From: Dehalococcoidia bacterium
Lineage (GTDB): Bacteria; Chloroflexota; Dehalococcoidia; UBA6926
Direction: 5' to 3'
Assembly: GCA_965206275.1 (NCBI GenBank)
Contig: OZ242203.1
Location: 904,474 to 968,473, forward strand
DNA length: 64,000 nucleotides
The notes beneath the pieces were generated by a model. That model saw nothing but the letters and a program-made list of their open reading frames with translations, ran no database searches and was not told the origin of the DNA. Made by a program: the position numbers and the translations under genes. This document shows, piece after piece, positions 3,389 through 31,833 of this stretch (the stretch's first letter is position 1; each line of letters starts with the position of its first letter).

Positions 3389-4741
3389 CTACGCTACGTC
3401 CGGGTCGTAGTCCATGCCGACATGGCCCATGTCGATGAACTTCTGGTACTCCTCGTCTGAGTAGCCCATGACGTTCTTGTAGACGTAATCGTTGTCCTGG
3501 CCGAGCATGACAGCGTGGCGCCGGATCTCATAAGGCGTATTCTGGAGTTTGAATCCCGTCGTGGGGTTCTTGTGGGTGCCGGCCTCGGGATGGGTCACCT
3601 GCTGGAAGAAGTTGCGCTCAGCCACGTGCGGGTCCGCGTGGACATCGCTCTCATCCATGACCATGCCAGCGGGGACGCCGACCGCCTGCAGGCGGTGCAT
3701 GGTCTCGCGAGCATCCTGCTCAATCGTCCACCTGGAAATCACCTCATCCAGTTCGCGGCGGTTCTGATAGCGGCTGAGGGAGTCGGCAAAGCGCGGATCG
3801 TCGGCGAGGTTGGGCTCGCCCATGATCTGGCAGAGCGTGCGGAATTCGGCGTCTGAGCGGCAGGCAATGGTGAGCCATCGCTCGTCGCCGGCGCACTGGT
3901 AGACGTTGTGCGGGGCGAGGAACTGGTGCGTGTTGCCAAGTTGGGTGTAGACGCGGCCGTTCATGGAGTAGTCCATGACGAAATCACCAAGGAACGGAAC
4001 GAAGTTCTCAGCCGTTGGCGCCTCGATGAGGATTCCTTTGCCGGTCTTGTTGCGGTGGCGCAGACCCATGATAAAGGCGAGCGCGCCGCCGACGCCGCCC
4101 GCCGCATCACTTGGGACGCCGCTAGGGCCGCGGGCCGGGTCTTCATCCGGATAGGCGCGCAAGAGAGGATGGCCCGCCAAGGCCTCCATGTGATTGCCCC
4201 ACGTGCGGTAGTTCTTGTAAGGGCCCTCGATGCCGAAGGCGGGCATTCGGACCATGATCAGGCGCGGGTTGATTGCGGAGAGGCGCTCCCACGTAATGCC
4301 AAACCGCTCCATGGAAATGGCGACATTGTTTTCCAGGAAACCGTCCGCCTGGGCGACGAGCCGCTCCAGGGCTTCCTGGCCCTCAGGGCTCGCGAGATCC
4401 ATGGTGACGGAGAGCTTGTTGCGCGCGTGTGTGTTGAAGATAGCCTGGCGGTTCCAGGGGCGTTCACCCGGATCGTCATCGACATAACCCATGCCGGTGT
4501 TTCGGAGACGCACGAATTCCAGTGGCGGGCGGGCCATTTGGCCGCGTGTACTGGTAGCGAAGTGCTTGATGGACTCGATTCGGATGACCTCCGCGCCCCA
4601 GTCCGCAAGGTGCATGGTGCCATACGGGCCGGCCCACACGACAGTGATGTCCAAGATACGCAGGCCCTCAAGGGGCAGCTTGCCGGTACCAGGGACAGGG
4701 GAGCCGGTCATGTCTCGGCGGCCGTTCTCTGTGGCTGTCAT
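3389..4741 (-). CDS. CoA-transferase family III (CaiB/BaiF) protein
   Basis: N-terminal LEGLRILDITVVWAGPYGTMHLADWGAEVIRIES is the family-III CoA-binding Rossmann signature. 450 aa. Confidence 0.85.
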   Translation of the reverse strand: MTATENGRRDMTGSPVPGTGKLPLEGLRILDITVVWAGPYGTMHLADWGAEVIRIESIKHFATSTRGQMARPPLEFVRLRNTGMGYVDDDPGERPWNRQAIFNTHARNKLSVTMDLASPEGQEALERLVAQADGFLENNVAISMERFGITWERLSAINPRLIMVRMPAFGIEGPYKNYRTWGNHMEALAGHPLLRAYPDEDPARGPSGVPSDAAGGVGGALAFIMGLRHRNKTGKGILIEAPTAENFVPFLGDFVMDYSMNGRVYTQLGNTHQFLAPHNVYQCAGDERWLTIACRSDAEFRTLCQIMGEPNLADDPRFADSLSRYQNRRELDEVISRWTIEQDARETMHRLQAVGVPAGMVMDESDVHADPHVAERNFFQQVTHPEAGTHKNPTTGFKLQNTPYEIRRHAVMLGQDNDYVYKNVMGYSDEEYQKFIDMGHVGMDYDPDVA

Positions 4742-4786: not shown

Positions 4787-6004
4787 CTAGATGACGCCCT
4801 CAGACCGGAGGAACGATATATCTTCGCCCTCAATGCCGATCTCCTTGAGAACCTCGACGGTGTGTTCACCGAGGAGGGGTGCACGGTGGCGGGCGGGCCG
4901 CTCGCCGTCCTCGAAGTGGATACGAGAGTTGAAGCCAGGGTAGGTGAGAGGGCCAGTGGCGGGGTGGTCGATAGTTTGCCAGAAACCTCGCGCGTCAAAG
5001 TCTTCGTCGTTCATGAGGTTCTCGATGGTGTTGACGGGGCCGCCAAGCACGCCGAACTCCATGCAGGCGCGCTGCACCTCTTTGGTGGTGCGCTCCAGCA
5101 TCCACGGGATGAGGGTGGCCTCCCATTCTTCGGCGGCCTCCGGACGTGAGCGGGCGGCGACAGTATCCCAACCGGGTTGGGTTAGGATGTCCTCCGCGCC
5201 GACCATGCGCGCCATGTTGGGGAACTGGGCGGCACCGGCCGTGGTCATGAACATGCCATCAAGGCAGGGGTAGATGCCGCTGCCGAGACCGAGGCTGGCG
5301 CCGGGGGAGACACGCATGGGCACCTGGTTGTTGTACTGGTAGCCGAGGAGTTTTTGCATGCGGCCATCGATGGATTGGAGCGTAACTTCGAAATAGCTGA
5401 CATCGATGTTCTCGCCCTGCCCTCGCAGTTCGGCATTGGTAAGGCCCAGAGCGCTGGCGAGGGCGGCGGCGTAGCCGACGTGGAAGCTGGCCATGCGGCC
5501 GGCGGTCTTGAGCGGCTCAAGCTCGGGATCCCCGGAGCCCCACATGTTGCCACCCATTGCGTACAATGTGAGATCAAGCCCGACCCAGTCCTTATAGGGG
5601 CCGGTTTTACCGAAGTTGCTGATGGAGGTCATCACGAGCTGAGGGTTGATTTGACTGAGCTCCTCGTAGCCGAGTCCGGCGTTCGGCATGACGTCGGGCG
5701 GGAAGCTCTCGATGAGGATGTCGGCACCCTTTACGAGCTCCTTGATGATCTGTTTGCCCTTCTCAGTCTTGAAGTCCAGGGTGACGGAACGCTTGTTGGT
5801 GTTGAGGAATAGGAAAAGTCCGCTCTTTTCGAGGTCAGGCTCATCGTGGTAGAAGGGACCGATACGGCGCGCCGGGTCTCCACCGCCCGGCCTCTCAATC
5901 TTGATAACGTCTGCGCCGTAGTCGCCGAGAATCCGTGTGGCGTACGGCCCTGCGGTGTAATGCGTCAAGTCAATAACGCGGACACCCTCAAGCGGCATGA
6001 ACAT
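4787..6004 (-). CDS. CoA-transferase family III (CaiB/BaiF) protein
   Basis: LEGVRVIDLTHYTAGPYATRILGDYGADVIKIERPGGGDP signature. Start moved to the ATG (MFMPLEG) that has a GGAGGGGGGG SD 10 nt upstream; the longer ORF begins at 6088. Confidence 0.82.
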   Translation of the reverse strand: MFMPLEGVRVIDLTHYTAGPYATRILGDYGADVIKIERPGGGDPARRIGPFYHDEPDLEKSGLFLFLNTNKRSVTLDFKTEKGKQIIKELVKGADILIESFPPDVMPNAGLGYEELSQINPQLVMTSISNFGKTGPYKDWVGLDLTLYAMGGNMWGSGDPELEPLKTAGRMASFHVGYAAALASALGLTNAELRGQGENIDVSYFEVTLQSIDGRMQKLLGYQYNNQVPMRVSPGASLGLGSGIYPCLDGMFMTTAGAAQFPNMARMVGAEDILTQPGWDTVAARSRPEAAEEWEATLIPWMLERTTKEVQRACMEFGVLGGPVNTIENLMNDEDFDARGFWQTIDHPATGPLTYPGFNSRIHFEDGERPARHRAPLLGEHTVEVLKEIGIEGEDISFLRSEGVI

Positions 6005-6144
6005 CTCTAAACGGCCCCCCCTCCGTCTCTGCTCACCGGGCGATGGGCTTTGTTCCTCACCGTCCAGATTGATGCCATATTGTGGCACTGAGTGATGGTG
6101 GGGTAAAGGGATGGAGGGAGCAAGTATAATTGTAGGCGCGGGGA

Positions 6145-6756
6145 TTGCGAATGGAGAATCGGTCTAACGACGTCGAAAGCGGCTTTCCGGGGCCGGGCGC
6201 TCAGGAGCAGGGGCGGCCGGGAATTGTCGTTGTCAGTGTGGCGGTTGTGGTGATGGCGGCGTTCATTGGCCTCCTTGCATACAGCTTGCTGACACGTGAG
6301 ACGATGCCGATGGACACGACGACACGCACCAGCATCGCGGCGCCGTCGTTCACGCTTTCACAGCTGAACGGAGCGGGAGACGTGAGTTTGTCCGATTTTG
6401 AGGGTTCGCCACTCGTGGTGAATTTCTGGGCTTCATGGTGCGCTCCGTGCCGCGTTGAGATGCCACATCTGGTCGAGGCTCATGAGCGATACAAGGACCA
6501 GGGAGTTCGATTCATCGGCGTTGCGATCCAGGACACGAATGAGGACGCGCTGGCCTTTATCGAGGAATTCGACGTTCCCGTTGACGATGGCTATGTCATG
6601 GTGACCGATCCGGACGGGGAGGCCACTATAGACTACGGTGTCGGCGGGCTGCCAGTGACGTTCTTCATCGAGCAGGACGGCACGGTGCATACGCGGTGGG
6701 CAGGCGTGGTGAACAGTACAGTCCTCGATGAGAGGATCGCGGAGATACTCTATTAG
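6145..6756 (+). CDS. membrane-anchored TlpA/ResA-like thiol-disulfide oxidoreductase (thioredoxin fold, WCAPC)
   Basis: N-terminal TM helix, then a thioredoxin-like domain with NFWASWCAPCRVEMPHL (CxxC active site). Confidence 0.85.
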   Translation: MRMENRSNDVESGFPGPGAQEQGRPGIVVVSVAVVVMAAFIGLLAYSLLTRETMPMDTTTRTSIAAPSFTLSQLNGAGDVSLSDFEGSPLVVNFWASWCAPCRVEMPHLVEAHERYKDQGVRFIGVAIQDTNEDALAFIEEFDVPVDDGYVMVTDPDGEATIDYGVGGLPVTFFIEQDGTVHTRWAGVVNSTVLDERIAEILY

Positions 6757-6772
6757 CGGCAACTGGCATACC

Positions 6773-7738
6773 ATGGATCGCTTCATCGGACTCTGGGCGC
6801 TTATCTTTGTTCGGCCACTATTTGTACTGGGCATCTTAGTGGCGGCCATTGGGGTCTTGTTGGTGTTGTTCTCGGCAGGTTATTTCGCTCTCGGGGGGTA
6901 TTCAGAGGCAAACCTGGATGAACTGAACGTTTCACAGGCTGAGAGCGGCATCACGCAGGAAGATCTGACACGTGGTTTGCCAACGGCGCTGCCGACCACG
7001 CCATCCGCAACAACTCCCACGCCCGTCAGTTCACCATCGCCTGGGAATACACCATTGGCAATGACCGCGCAAACTCAGCAACCTACTCCCATCACTGAAG
7101 ATGCGGCAGGTAATCCCACTCAGGCAGACAGCACAACAGGAAGCAATCTCTATGACGAGTACGGCGTCCTCCGGGACTTCAGTCATTATTTGGCCGAGGC
7201 TAACGATGGCGCGCTGCTTGAGCCGATTAGAGAGAATTTCAAGCTAATTGCTGAGGAAGACCTCGTTGAGACCTATGGAGAGGAACCGCGACCTCTCCAC
7301 ATCATCATTCCTGCCATCAACCTCGAATCGAACATTATCGACCTCAACATCTTGTGGGATGGCGAGACGGCTGAATGGGAGACGGCTGACCGCGCAGTTG
7401 GTTTCCACGTTGGTTCAGCGACCCCGGGAGAAATCGGTAATACGGTGATGTCCGGCCACGTGAATTCGCCGTTTGCAGGCGAGGGATCGATATTCGCACG
7501 TCTGGATGAGATTGCACCTCTTCTGCGACGCGGCGAGATTGTAGACATCATGGTCATGGCAGGCGGTGACGTGTTCCTGTACCGGGCTACAGATACGACC
7601 GTTGTTCTGCCGGAGGACATGGACGTATTCGATTACTCAGACAGCCCGACGCTGTCACTTGTGACGTGCGCGCCGGCAACAACATATTCCCATCGCTTCA
7701 TCGTTAACGCGACGCTTGTTGGTGTGGCACGGCTGTAG
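6773..7738 (+). CDS. sortase family transpeptidase (membrane anchor + Pro/Thr-rich linker + catalytic domain)
   Basis: Catalytic His (MSGHVNSP) and the TLxTC cysteine motif (SPTLSLVTCAP); Arg in ATDTTVV...; N-terminal TM segment. Start set at the internal ATG at 6773; the ORF overlaps the upstream gene if started at 6728. Confidence 0.8.
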   Translation: MDRFIGLWALIFVRPLFVLGILVAAIGVLLVLFSAGYFALGGYSEANLDELNVSQAESGITQEDLTRGLPTALPTTPSATTPTPVSSPSPGNTPLAMTAQTQQPTPITEDAAGNPTQADSTTGSNLYDEYGVLRDFSHYLAEANDGALLEPIRENFKLIAEEDLVETYGEEPRPLHIIIPAINLESNIIDLNILWDGETAEWETADRAVGFHVGSATPGEIGNTVMSGHVNSPFAGEGSIFARLDEIAPLLRRGEIVDIMVMAGGDVFLYRATDTTVVLPEDMDVFDYSDSPTLSLVTCAPATTYSHRFIVNATLVGVARL

Positions 7739-27118: not shown

Positions 27119-27147
27119 AATGCGCCTAGTCGGTGGGGAGTGTGGTT

Positions 27148-29565
27148 ATGACTAATGGTGGGGCGGGATCGGCGGCTGGCGGCGGGGATTCGGCGCTGGG
27201 GCATTTGCGGGTTGTGGAGATTGGGGAGATTCCCGCGGCGTATTGCGCGGGGTATCTGGCCGGGCTCGGCGCGGACGTGGTCAAGGTTGAGCCGCCGGGG
27301 GGCGATCCTAACCGGATGCATGCGCCGTTCGCGGGCGATATTGCCGACCCGGAGCGCGGTATTCCTTTTCTTAATGCGAATCTGAATCGTCGCAGCATCG
27401 TGCTGGACGTTGAGGATGCGGGCGGCAAGGAGACGCTTGAGAAGCTCATCGAGCGGGCGGATATCTTTGTCGAGTGCACGCCGCCTGGATACCTGGCCTC
27501 TCTGGGTGTTGATGATGAGCGGCTGGAGGCGTTGAATTCCGGGCTTGTGACGGTTTCGATGACGCCGTTTGGGCAGTCGGGGCCGCACAGCGCGTTCGCG
27601 GCTAACGAGGCGGTGATCTCCGCCATGTCCGGCGTGATGATGAGCCAGGGGGATGATGAGCGCTCACCGGTCGTGCTGCCGTGCCAGATCGGCGCGCAGC
27701 TGGCCGCGGCGCTTGGCGCGTATTTGGGAGTCAACGGTGTGCGGCATCGACGGGCGACGGGTCGGGGCCAGCGCATCGATCTCTCGTTGCAGGAGGCGCT
27801 GACATTCGCGACAGTCGGGACGATTGCGCGGTACAGTCAGCGGAGCGAGCTGGTGACGCGGCAGGGACCACGCGGCGGACCCGCGAATATCTATCGAACA
27901 AAGGACGACAAGTACGTCCAGATTGCGGTCTTTATGACCGGGCACTGGCGTGTTCTGGCCCGGCAGTGGATGGAGGACGCGGTGTTGTCCGGCGACGACT
28001 GGGATTCGTCGCAGTACCGGACGGACAACGAGGACCTGGCGCAGATCCTTATACAGTCGTTCGTCGAGCAGTTCGACCGCGATGAGTTCGTGGAGGAGGG
28101 GCAGAAGCGCGGGCTGGCAGTCTGCCCCGTCAACACGTTCGAGGATTTCGTAACGGACGAGCATATGCGGTCACGGGGGTGGTTCCAGACAGTGACGCAT
28201 CCCGTCGTTGGCGAGTACGAGACGCCGGGGCAGCCTTTCATCATGTCAGCGACGCCGTGGAACCAGACGCGCCCTGCCCCGCTGCTGGACCAGCATCGGG
28301 ATGAGGTGCTGGCCGAGATTGAATCGGTTCAGCCGCGTCGTGAGACGTACCCTGCGCCGACGAACGGGAAAGCATCGGACGACGCGCTGCTGGAGGGCAT
28401 CCGCGTGGCGGACATCACGCGGGCGTTCGCGGGGCCGATCGGGACGATGTTCCTCGGCTTCTACGGGGCGGAGGTCATCAAGGTGGAGTCCGAGAGCCTT
28501 GAGGCGAATCGCGAGCCGACGCGTCCGCTGTTCCCCGACATGAACCGGAACAAGATCAGCTGCACACTCGATCTGCGGTCGGACGGCGGCAAGGACCTGT
28601 TCCGCCAAATGGTCAAGGAAAGTGACGTTGTCGTTGACAACTTCAGCGCGACGGTCATGAAGCGACTTGGGCTGGGCTACGACGACCTGACGAAGATCAA
28701 CCCGGGCATCATCCAGATCGGGATGCCGGGGATGGGGTCCGAGGGGCCGCTGAACAACTGGGTGACGTACGGGAACAACCTGCAGGCGGTGACGGGGCTG
28801 TCGCTGCTGTGGGGGCACCCGGACTCGCCGATGCAGAACCATGCGAAGGGGGTCATCCCGGATTACGTGGGCGCTGCGTTCGTGGCGCTATCGACGGCGG
28901 CGGCGCTGGAATACCGAGACGTGACGGGTCGCGGTCAGTTCATCGAGATTGCTCAGGTGGACGGCCAGGGGTCGATGATGGGCCCGGCCATCCTGGACTA
29001 CACGATCAACAAGAACATCTGGGGCAGCGTGGGCTATGACGAGCCGCTGGCGGCCCATTACGCGCCCTACGGGGCGTATGCGTGCCTTTACCAGGACACA
29101 TGGATCGTCATCGCGTGCGAGACGGACGAGCAGTGGCGGGCGCTGGCTCAGGCGATGGGCGCGCCGCACTGGGCGGACGATCCCCGTTTCGCAGACACAG
29201 CGGGGCGGCGTGAGAACCGCGACGAGATCGACCACGAGATAAGCGAGTGGGCCAAGGCGTTCACGTCGCACCAGCTTCTGCACATGCTGCAGAAGGTGGG
29301 CGTGCCTGCGGGCGTGGCGATGAACAGTGAGGACCTGTACCACGATCCGCACTTGCGGGAGCGGGGACACATCGTACAGTCGACGCACTCGACGTGGGGG
29401 ACGCTGTCGCATCACGGGCTGCCTGCGATACCGTCGCTGTCCAAGGCGACGGCGGCGAATCGCGCGCCATGGATCGGTGAGGATAATGAGTACGTGTACA
29501 GGTCCGTGCTTGGGCTTTCAGAGGATGAGATCAGAGAGGGCACGGAGAGTGGGGTGCTGAGGTAG
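27148..29565 (+). CDS. fused tandem double CoA-transferase family III protein (two CaiB/BaiF domains, ~805 aa)
   Basis: Domain 1 signature LRVVEIGEIPAAYCAGYLAGLGADVVKVEPPGG. Domain 2 signature LEGIRVADITRAFAGPIGTMFLGFYGAEVIKVES. ATG at 27148 with GGGGAG 7 nt upstream. Confidence 0.8.
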   Translation: MTNGGAGSAAGGGDSALGHLRVVEIGEIPAAYCAGYLAGLGADVVKVEPPGGDPNRMHAPFAGDIADPERGIPFLNANLNRRSIVLDVEDAGGKETLEKLIERADIFVECTPPGYLASLGVDDERLEALNSGLVTVSMTPFGQSGPHSAFAANEAVISAMSGVMMSQGDDERSPVVLPCQIGAQLAAALGAYLGVNGVRHRRATGRGQRIDLSLQEALTFATVGTIARYSQRSELVTRQGPRGGPANIYRTKDDKYVQIAVFMTGHWRVLARQWMEDAVLSGDDWDSSQYRTDNEDLAQILIQSFVEQFDRDEFVEEGQKRGLAVCPVNTFEDFVTDEHMRSRGWFQTVTHPVVGEYETPGQPFIMSATPWNQTRPAPLLDQHRDEVLAEIESVQPRRETYPAPTNGKASDDALLEGIRVADITRAFAGPIGTMFLGFYGAEVIKVESESLEANREPTRPLFPDMNRNKISCTLDLRSDGGKDLFRQMVKESDVVVDNFSATVMKRLGLGYDDLTKINPGIIQIGMPGMGSEGPLNNWVTYGNNLQAVTGLSLLWGHPDSPMQNHAKGVIPDYVGAAFVALSTAAALEYRDVTGRGQFIEIAQVDGQGSMMGPAILDYTINKNIWGSVGYDEPLAAHYAPYGAYACLYQDTWIVIACETDEQWRALAQAMGAPHWADDPRFADTAGRRENRDEIDHEISEWAKAFTSHQLLHMLQKVGVPAGVAMNSEDLYHDPHLRERGHIVQSTHSTWGTLSHHGLPAIPSLSKATAANRAPWIGEDNEYVYRSVLGLSEDEIREGTESGVLR

Positions 29566-31051: not shown

Positions 31052-31142
31052 GAGTCTTTAGATTCCTCGGCTACGCTCGGAATGACATGAGAAGGCGGCG
31101 CTTCGCGCCGCACTGGATTCCCGCTTTCGCGGGAATGACGAG
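31052..31142. repeat. composite repeat (B + E + A), overlapping the annotated 5' end of the following redoxin ORF
   Basis: tttagattcctcggctacgctcggaatgaca; ggcggcgcttcgcgccgcactgg; attcccgctttcgcgggaatgacga. Confidence 0.85.
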
Positions 31143-31833
31143 TCCGTACAATCGGAGTGTGAGGGGATTACTTCCGGGACGCTTTTCTATTCTGTTCATT
31201 GCCGTGTTGGCGGCAATTGTCTTCATCATCGCGGGATGCGGAGAGGATTCACCGACCGCGACTTCTGTACCAACAATTACTCCGACTGCGGTACCTACGG
31301 ACACTCCCCTGCCGACGGCTACCGCGGTGCCAACGGCGACTCCTGAACATGAGCTGCCGCAGGCGCCGGATTTCTCGCTGTCTACGGGGACGGGCGAGCG
31401 GTATTCGTTGGATGAGCTGCTTGCGGGGCGGGATGCGCTCGTGCTGGTGTTCTATCGCAGCTTCCGTTGAGGCATCTGCCAGCAGCAACTGGTCGAGTTG
31501 CAAAGTTTCTACGACGAGTTTGAGGAACGGGACGTCGGGCTGGCGGCGATCAGCACGGACTCGCTGGTCGATGCAGAGCAGATGGAGGTGTTGGCAGAAG
31601 CAGAGTTCCCGGTGCTAGCCGACAGGAACGAGGACGTTTCCAAGGATTTCGGCGTGTTCAACCTGCTTGGGGACGGGGTCGCTGCCCCCGCGACGTTCAT
31701 CATCTTGCCGGACGGCGGGGTTGTGTGGGGGTACGTCGGTGTGGAGATCGGGGACCGGGTGCCGTCGCAGGTCATTTTGGAGGTGCTGGACGTGGTGCTG
31801 GGGGTTGAGGAGGGGGAGCAGGTGAGGGTGTGA
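31087..31833 (+). CDS. candidate selenoprotein: lipoprotein Prx-like/redoxin (AhpC-TSA fold) with in-frame TGA (31468-31470) giving a U-G-I-C redox motif. The true start is likely downstream of 31087.
   Basis: ORFs 31087-31470 and 31498-31833 share a frame and are separated only by one TGA. Lipobox IAGC and a Pro/Thr linker. The redoxin domain PDFSL..GERYSLDEL..ALVLVFYRSFR[TGA]GICQQQLVELQSFYDEFEERDVGLAAISTDS places the TGA three residues before the conserved Cys. Confidence 0.5.
31471..31505 (+). promoter_or_regulatory. bacterial SECIS-like hairpin downstream of the in-frame UGA (gcaac-UGGUCGA-guugc)
   Basis: The stem-loop starts 15 nt after the UGA. GGUC in its apical loop lies at +21..+24, comparable to the E. 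coli fdhF SECIS (G/U at about +19..+22). Confidence 0.4.

Follow-up and report, generated by a model that had tools for sequence, protein, structure and literature searches.

In a 64,000-nucleotide stretch of DNA from a Dehalococcoidia bacterium (contig OZ242203.1, referred to here as the window), two open reading frames (ORFs) in one frame, 31087-31470 (127 aa) and 31498-31833 (111 aa), are separated by the TGA codon at 31468-31470. We propose, with a probability of about 0.9, that this TGA is a real selenocysteine (Sec, U) codon in the U-x-x-C site of a single redoxin, predicted to be an exported lipoprotein with a peroxiredoxin (Prx) fold. Translation through the TGA gives ...VLVFYRSFR-U-GIC-QQQLVELQ..., and the joined translation, with C in place of U, matches PF00578 (AhpC-TSA) with an E-value of 5.7e-25 (88 bits with a cut-off of 26, residues 92-213) and PF08534 (Redoxin) with an E-value of 1.8e-20. 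An earlier note made from the letters of this DNA had described the two same-frame ORFs, the TGA within the redoxin active site and an AhpC/TSA-fold read-through protein with a UxxC motif, and had read the gene as encoding a selenoprotein. We confirmed the coordinates and the motif, found one PF00578 domain in the joined protein, and the selenoprotein reading was borne out by the conservation of the TGA, by Cys-containing homologues, by a covarying hairpin and by purifying selection downstream of the codon. Most of the checks named in the note were run, and the outcome of each favoured its reading.

Homologues recovered by searching 5.8 billion protein clusters were almost only fragments, broken at the site of the TGA. 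The C-terminal fragments were about 110 aa long, spanned the final 69% of the domain and showed 63-91% identity, and the N-terminal fragments ended in ...VFYRSFR, ...FYRSYG or ...FYRSFF. The window's own C-terminal ORF had no exact entry in the contig collection. The same in-frame stop was present in the DNA of L001, which is syntenic with the window (infC-rpmI-rplT-redoxin), and of L003, a relative with 49% identity (FYRSYG-stop-GICQQQL and FYRGLF-stop-GTCRNQL, respectively). For each GTDB species, we searched a single genome for the peptide pattern D[GN]VAAPATF, in which the stop plays no part. This yielded 54 loci, all from metagenome-assembled genomes of Dehalococcoidia/Chloroflexota, and all 53 that cover the site have TGA there. 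Together with L001, L003 and the window, the count of sequences with TGA at this column is 56 of 56. They represent about 55 Dehalococcoidia species with 41-91% identity, and each has at least 109 open codons past the TGA with no frameshift or extra stop. Chance cannot account for an in-frame TGA at one column in all of these sequences.

If the TGA were a true stop, whether in a pseudogene, through a recent nonsense mutation or through a sequencing error, the downstream ORF would be a dead remnant. Gene callers treat the codon in this way, nearly every database entry is a fragment and the window contains no Sec machinery. However, the same codon recurs in independent assemblies of all the species above, and the sequence that follows it is under selection. 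We calculated the ratio of nonsynonymous to synonymous substitution rates (dN/dS) between the window and each of 15 relatives in its own sub-lineage (L001 and L005-L018). The 105 codons past the TGA, which contain neither indels nor stops, had dN/dS values of 0.11-0.15 in 14 of the 15 comparisons and 0.31 in the comparison with L018, with dS ranging from 0.5 to 1.3 and mostly from 0.6 to 0.9. Constraint on these codons was equal to or stronger than that on the 38 codons before the TGA. A dead remnant or an untranslated spacer is excluded because dN/dS is this low downstream of the TGA, and the hairpin after the codon covaries. We therefore regard the probability of a true stop as practically negligible.

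Two separate products might also be made, the C-terminal one beginning at a TTG codon at 31498 or arising by re-initiation. An ORF with this TTG start is present, and databases contain many predicted C-terminal fragments about 110 aa long. However, the matching codon is CTG in 35 of the 56 relatives and gene callers choose differing starts there. Division at this point would sever one thioredoxin/Prx fold, with strand 1 on one side and the active-site helix on the other, and would leave the C-terminal piece without a signal peptide and with only half the redox motif. The Cys-form homologues are continuous. Thus, production of two proteins is extremely improbable.

These continuous homologues were obtained with HMMER by using the 120 residues past the TGA as the query against 1.84 billion representatives. 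The search found 401 relatives, many of them truncated fragments. In full-length relatives, the U column is occupied by a sense codon, which encodes Cys in 28 of 33 cases, and the second position of the motif is Cys in 32 of the 33; one example is P0172 with VLVFYRGFF-C-GIC-RGQLVELQ. Aligning homologues at this codon, a check named in the earlier note, thus gave TGA in all orthologues, with no natural end or frameshift, and Cys in the distant full-length homologues. Two representatives have Trp at the U column. For one of these, P0180, the DNA (L059, 114-635, on a 32% GC contig from ERZ840995) reads TGA followed by the same hairpin, and the Trp is evidently an artefact of gene calling with genetic code 4.

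The rendering of this TGA as Trp by one pipeline would fit a selenium-free reading of UGA, either by a near-cognate tRNA for Trp or Cys or through lineage-specific reassignment, with the hairpin merely slowing termination. The rarity of TGA as a terminator in the window can be counted in the same direction: of 27 genes, nearly all Pfam-supported, 16 end in TAG, seven in TAA and four in TGA, which is unusually few for a GC-rich genome (61% GC in the window). By contrast, the redoxin gene has TGA as its own terminator (31831-31833), as do 25 of the 56 family genes with the window gene among them, and because these and other window genes end in TGA, UGA is not a reassigned codon. Pfam-complete genes of the window are uninterrupted by TGA, the homologues with a sense codon align the Cys of a CxxC centre rather than Trp, selB lies near the gene in six species and the one Trp checked against DNA is TGA. 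We consider selenium-free read-through very unlikely.

A SECIS-like (selenocysteine insertion sequence-like) hairpin begins 14 nt past the TGA, and its GGUCG loop begins 20 nt past the UGA, placing GGUC at +21 to +24 counted from the first base past the TGA. The existence of a hairpin and this position of GGUC had been stated in the earlier note and both stand, whereas its geometry of a 5-bp stem, a 7-nt loop and a 15-nt spacing is replaced by a stem of 6 bp, a loop of 5 nt and a spacing of 14 nt. In an ungapped alignment of 72 columns (stem columns 30-35/41-46), 98.4% of the stem cells were paired compared with 5-42% in controls with the 3' partners slid by 1-3 columns, and RNAalifold returned the same helix without prior input. 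Two stem pairs vary on both sides. Among distinct sequences, pair 33-43, which joins the synonymous third base of a Gln codon to the first base of a Leu codon, is G-C in 33, A-U in 17, G-U in three and unpaired in none; pair 30-46 is C-G in 25, G-C in 23 and unpaired in five. On a neighbour-joining tree made from residues outside the hairpin, A-U to G-C switches occurred at least five times independently, and one of these, in L017, falls within the window's own sub-lineage.

Codon choice follows the hairpin. Without exception, the 3' Leu codon reads YTG and the last base of the Glu/Gln codon is G; by contrast, the Leu codon that has its third base in the loop is free to vary there. The second base of the loop is G throughout. 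The relative on the 32% GC contig retains CAACU-CGUUG-AGUUG, and the window hairpin has a folding energy of -8.0 kcal/mol, the family mean also being -8.0. Within the window's sub-lineage, synonymous codon entropy was 0.17 bits at codons +1 to +11 versus 0.78 bits for the remaining codons, and the 11-codon segments with the lowest entropy in the gene begin at codons -2, -1 and +1.

Criteria of the bSECISearch type look for a stem-loop right after the UGA with a G in the apical loop at approximately 16-37 nt from the UGA. The hairpin described here has an apical G, and the distance of its loop from the UGA lies within this range. The SECIS of E. coli fdhF is a hairpin directly downstream of the UGA, within the coding sequence, that has GGUC in its apical loop. 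The redoxin hairpin is likewise within the coding sequence and has a G-rich apical loop about 20 nt past the UGA; unlike that of fdhF, its loop is 2 nt further from the UGA, its 6-bp stem is shorter and it has no obvious bulged U. We also considered a longer element with a lower stem and rejected it, since the small GGC..GCC hairpin that immediately follows the UGA is not conserved across the family.

Genes for Sec decoding were found close to the redoxin in relatives. In L003, about 4 kb upstream of the redoxin, there is a selB gene that has the Pfam domains specific to SelB, and tblastn detected selB within 10 kb of the redoxin in L020, L023, L030, L032 and L034, making six species in all. 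SelB is widespread in SAR202/Dehalococcoidia as judged by the source names of SelB search matches, and two Dehalococcoidia are among the ten bacteria richest in selenoprotein genes in BSepDB (PMC13326102). We infer that the window's own genome also depends on SelB for this gene.

Several results weigh against a Sec codon in the window. ARAGORN detected no tRNA-Sec in its 64 kb, where it found no tRNA of any kind, and SelA, SelB and SelD are absent from its Pfam-annotated genes; nor did ARAGORN find tRNA-Sec in the 56 redoxin loci. The Sec machinery was seen in related genomes that lie outside the window's rplT-linked sub-lineage, and the best 120 matches of two SelB searches (queries from L003 and L020) all came from lineages other than this one. 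The uniform TGA describes a clade defined by its motif, Cys forms such as P0172 escaping the D[GN]VAAPATF pattern. The hairpin is short and four of its six stem pairs are invariant, in part forced by the conserved Q-L-x-E-L peptide. Rfam gave no relevant match, either at gathering thresholds over the whole window or in a permissive search of 31400-31600; to our knowledge, Rfam has no general bacterial SECIS model. Finally, a 66-nt single-sequence fold from the window was no better than shuffled sequences (z = -0.49). Support for the hairpin thus comes from the comparison of relatives and not from the single sequence.

With UGA read as Sec, one gene (approximately 31159-31833) would yield a membrane-anchored extracytoplasmic lipoprotein with a U-G-I-C redox centre in a Prx-fold domain. 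During translation, SelB carrying Sec-tRNA(Sec) would bind the hairpin and deliver Sec to the ribosome, so that the first UGA is recoded, and termination would occur at the second UGA at the end of the gene, which has no such hairpin.

The fold of the protein was examined with the Cys-form P0172. An alignment-based AlphaFold model had a predicted local distance difference test score (pLDDT) of 97.8 and superseded a poor single-sequence model (pLDDT 63). Its closest PDB matches were the peroxiredoxins Bcp4 and AhpE, with a template modelling (TM) score of 0.88. The redox motif lies at the end of the loop between strand 1 and helix 1, with the helix running from residue 38. Alignment to solved Prx structures places the second Cys at the peroxidatic Cys and the Sec at the Prx Thr/Ser, and the Pro of AAPATF, which is nearly invariant (64 of 73 family sequences), occupies the position of R in ..YRASF.. 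and ..KRAVF.. of AhpC and BCP structures. The peroxiredoxin pattern of PxxxT/SxxC plus a catalytic Arg is thus absent: Thr/Ser is replaced by Sec, Pro by Arg and Arg by Pro, and the Cys alone is kept. The AAPATF Pro resembles the cis-Pro of thioredoxin-like oxidoreductases. From sequence and modelled structure, the protein has the scaffold of a Prx and a catalytic apparatus of thioredoxin type, made of C/UxxC and Pro-x-Thr-Phe.

The main functional rival accepts the selenoprotein and makes it an extracytoplasmic peroxidase, in which peroxide would oxidize Sec to a selenenic acid that Cys then resolves, in the manner of GPx or PrxU. In its favour, the reaction of selenols with peroxides is rapid, Bcp4 and AhpE have the nearest scaffolds and the partner Cys sits in the peroxidatic position. 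However, the Thr and Arg with which a Prx activates peroxide are replaced by Sec and Pro, and this replacement argues for thioredoxin-like thiol/selenol-disulfide exchange and not a Prx-type peroxidase. Both Pro-x-Thr-Phe and the spacing of CxxC are likewise of the thiol-disulfide oxidoreductase type, and in about 20 relatives the gene belongs to a copper/cytochrome c cluster and does not accompany genes for oxidative stress. We judge a peroxidase role unlikely. We infer instead that the chemistry is thiol/selenol-disulfide exchange through a selenenylsulfide, with the protein acting as a thiol-disulfide oxidoreductase of the thioredoxin/TlpA/ResA type. A disulfide of the substrate, or an oxidant, would be the target of the exposed selenolate, the Cys three residues on would resolve the intermediate to give the selenenylsulfide, and a membrane electron donor would re-reduce it; the redox direction and the substrate in this scheme are presumed.

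Selenoproteins with UxxC in a pfam00578 domain, an abundant predicted family, have been known since 2004-2008 under the names "Prx-like thiol:disulfide oxidoreductase" or "Prx-like 1" (PMC1794560, PMC2398784). Prx-like 1, of UxxC/UxxU type, comprised 225 Global Ocean Sampling (GOS) sequences with 2,740 Cys homologues (PMC2398784), UxxC Prx-like selenoproteins occur in Deltaproteobacteria genomes (PMC1794560) and they have been described as "predicted with high confidence" (PMC13188914, PMC9312934). The redoxin shares with Prx-like 1 the AhpC/TSA domain, Sec as the first residue of U-x-x-C, Cys homologues and the signature of a UGA with a downstream hairpin; the putative kinship with reference members such as WP_010940744.1 is one of domain and motif. 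Unlike Prx-like 1, the window clade is confined to Dehalococcoidia, as sampled, and has a lipoprotein signal and a Thr/Pro linker. Its own motifs are FYR[GS]x[FG]-U-G[IV]C-[RQ]xQL and D[GN]VAAPATF.

No curated NCBIfam model claims the redoxin. The best match, SelL-related NF040769, had an E-value of 4.9e-14 and 52.4 bits against a curated cut-off of 120, and by this NCBI criterion the redoxin is not a member. Proteins of cd02970 (PRX_like2) have CxxC on a Prx scaffold and lack the Prx Thr and Arg. With the SelL-related/PRX_like2 proteins the redoxin has in common the Prx scaffold, a thioredoxin-like CxxC, a second Cys equivalent to the peroxidatic Cys and the missing Thr and Arg. Fish SelL has UxxU, unlike the UxxC of the window. 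SelL has itself been named as a Prx-like protein (PMC2398784). The redoxin also shares features with TlpA, ResA and CcmG (DsbE), namely predicted membrane-anchored export, a CxxC-type centre where helix 1 begins and a cis-Pro-like P-x-T-F motif, and it fell below the NCBIfam cut-offs for ResA (37 bits vs 170) and TlpA (16 vs 230). Unlike TlpA, its fold is nearer to Prx and Sec stands in place of Cys, and the likeness to ResA/TlpA/DsbE lies in the likely mode of action only. The redoxin is thus a lineage-specific lipoprotein addition to a known selenoprotein class and will not surprise a specialist; what is known of Sec decoding and of the protein class is left unchanged.

In public databases, the gene and dozens of its orthologues appear either in two pieces or with the TGA rendered as Trp. 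Such a split annotation parts the remainder of the domain from the export signal and the half that bears the active site, and recognition of the Sec codon would restore a complete exported redox enzyme. The Sec-containing Prx-like redoxins would thereby gain an extracytoplasmic, lipid-anchored member from a marine lineage noted for large selenoproteomes. In addition, the alignment of 56 sequences provides a clean, covarying, minimal in-frame bacterial SECIS candidate that could help to train SECIS models.

Throughout the window's sub-lineage, the window included, infC-rpmI-rplT precedes the redoxin gene. About 20 larger genomes have it in a conserved copper/cytochrome c cluster whose other members are a pair of exported His-rich proteins, a CopC-CopD-YtkA-cytochrome c fusion of 740 aa and a polytopic membrane protein rich in Cys; the redoxin lies between the pair and the fusion. 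In six species, a selB gene is placed about 4 kb upstream. Neither the Cys-rich membrane protein nor the cluster neighbours hyp183, hyp233 and hyp512 had a Pfam match. Genes for TlpA, ResA and CcmG often adjoin cytochrome c or copper maturation genes, as these relatives adjoin the CopC-CopD-YtkA-cytochrome c fusion. Given this context, the redoxin may have a part in copper or cytochrome maturation resembling that of TlpA/ResA. One history that we offer as doubtful is that these are Dehalococcoidia-specific exported Sec redoxins that ancestrally served the copper/cytochrome c module and that were kept, and moved beside rplT, in streamlined genomes of about 1.9 Mb. Were it true, the redoxin would be a selenium-dependent counterpart of TlpA/ResA that metallates or matures extracytoplasmic respiratory proteins.

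At the 5' end, the ATG at 31087 that starts the long ORF sits among palindromic repeats that cluster between rplT and the redoxin gene, and one complete repeat copy falls within the first 18 codons of this ORF. L011 carries the same repeat insertion as the window. Four orthologues (L009, L010, L012 and L013) have a stop codon right before the equivalent of GTG 31159; because of this, GTG 31159 is likely the true start, the longer alternatives being ATG 31135 and ATG 31087. By inspection, the predicted signal peptide ends in the lipobox ..VFIIAG-C (31225-31239), which fits [LVI][ASTVI][GAS]C, and a hydrophobic h-region followed by [LVI][AG][GA]C is common to most of the 56 relatives. About 10 relatives have a transmembrane anchor in place of the lipoprotein signal. 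The redoxin would presumably be lipidated on the lipobox Cys and joined to the lipid anchor by a linker, and relatives have a comparable but poorly conserved linker. The earlier note's description of an exported lipoprotein whose 5' end overlaps a MITE-like (miniature inverted-repeat transposable element-like) repeat agrees with these results, and its suggestion that the repeat supplied the annotated start is supported by the four orthologues. The repeat is a REP (repetitive extragenic palindromic)/MITE-like palindrome, GGATTCCCGCTTTCGCGGGAATGAC, with all copies reported on the + strand. Several copies lie at gene ends, where they extend ORFs and translate as ..IPAFAGMT... Coordinates are collected in Table 1.

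Table 1. Features of the predicted selenoprotein gene and associated elements; positions are those of the window unless a locus is named.
Feature	Position	Strand	Basis
Predicted full selenoprotein coding sequence with one internal Sec codon	31159-31833	+	Read-through translation, Pfam, orthologue starts
Palindromic repeat cluster, including a full 25-nt copy at 31115-31139	31060-31139	+	Sequence; 11 copies in the window, 0 expected
Predicted lipoprotein-type signal peptide, VRGLLPGRFSILFIAVLAAIVFIIAG followed by C; lipobox Cys TGC at 31237-31239	31159-31239	+	Inspection; relatives
Thr/Pro/Ala-rich low-complexity linker between predicted lipid anchor and redoxin domain	31240-31359	+	Translation
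AhpC/TSA (peroxiredoxin-fold) domain	31360-31725	+	Pfam residues 92-213; AlphaFold model of Cys-form P0172; PDB matches
Suppressed synonymous change around the UGA and hairpin	31462-31503	+	Codon entropy within the window's sub-lineage
UGA predicted to be read as Sec, first residue of U-G-I-C	31468-31470	+	TGA in 56/56; Cys in 28/33 full-length homologues
TGC, putative partner (resolving) Cys of U-x-x-C	31477-31479	+	PDB alignments; Cys in 32/33 full-length homologues
SECIS-like hairpin GCAACU-GGUCG-AGUUGC	31485-31501	+	6-bp stem 31485-31490/31496-31501, 5-nt loop 31491-31495
TTG taken by ORF finders as start of the C-terminal fragment	31498-31500	+	Leu codon in the 3' arm of the hairpin
Pro of AAPATF at the position of the Prx catalytic Arg	31687-31689	+	Structure alignments; Pro in 64/73 family sequences
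Copies of GGATTCCCGCTTTCGCGGGAATGAC, 25 nt each	10973, 18294, 20343, 22001, 26011, 27093, 31115, 32929, 32979, 33595, 33710	+	
Copper/cytochrome c cluster loci	L003 8039-14248; L021-L024, L027, L030-L032, L034-L036, L041, L042, L044-L048, L050, L051		

Three distant members of the family, L053, L055 and L056, have a frame of 204-276 codons past the TGA compared with the usual 110-120 or so, which points to an extension or a fusion at the C-terminus. When the window was scanned for other read-through candidates, all except the TGA at 31468 were off-frame artefacts. Directly downstream of the redoxin gene is an ORF for an HNH endonuclease (PF13391; 31840-32784, - strand) with a low GC content at third codon positions (0.59). 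It is missing at the syntenic spot in L001 and is probably an insertion. The window also encodes an ordinary ResA/DsbE-like redoxin with WCAPC and a membrane anchor (6145-6756, + strand), which adjoins a sortase gene (6728-7738, + strand). Three genes encode CoA-transferases of family III (3389-4741 and 4787-6088 on the - strand and 27133-29565 on the + strand), and one of the products is 810 aa long with two such domains. Lastly, a giant ORF on the - strand (41503-63999) encodes at least 7,498 aa and continues beyond the end of the window. It has 13 Calx-beta stretches in its C-terminal 3,000 aa and probably encodes a huge surface adhesin.

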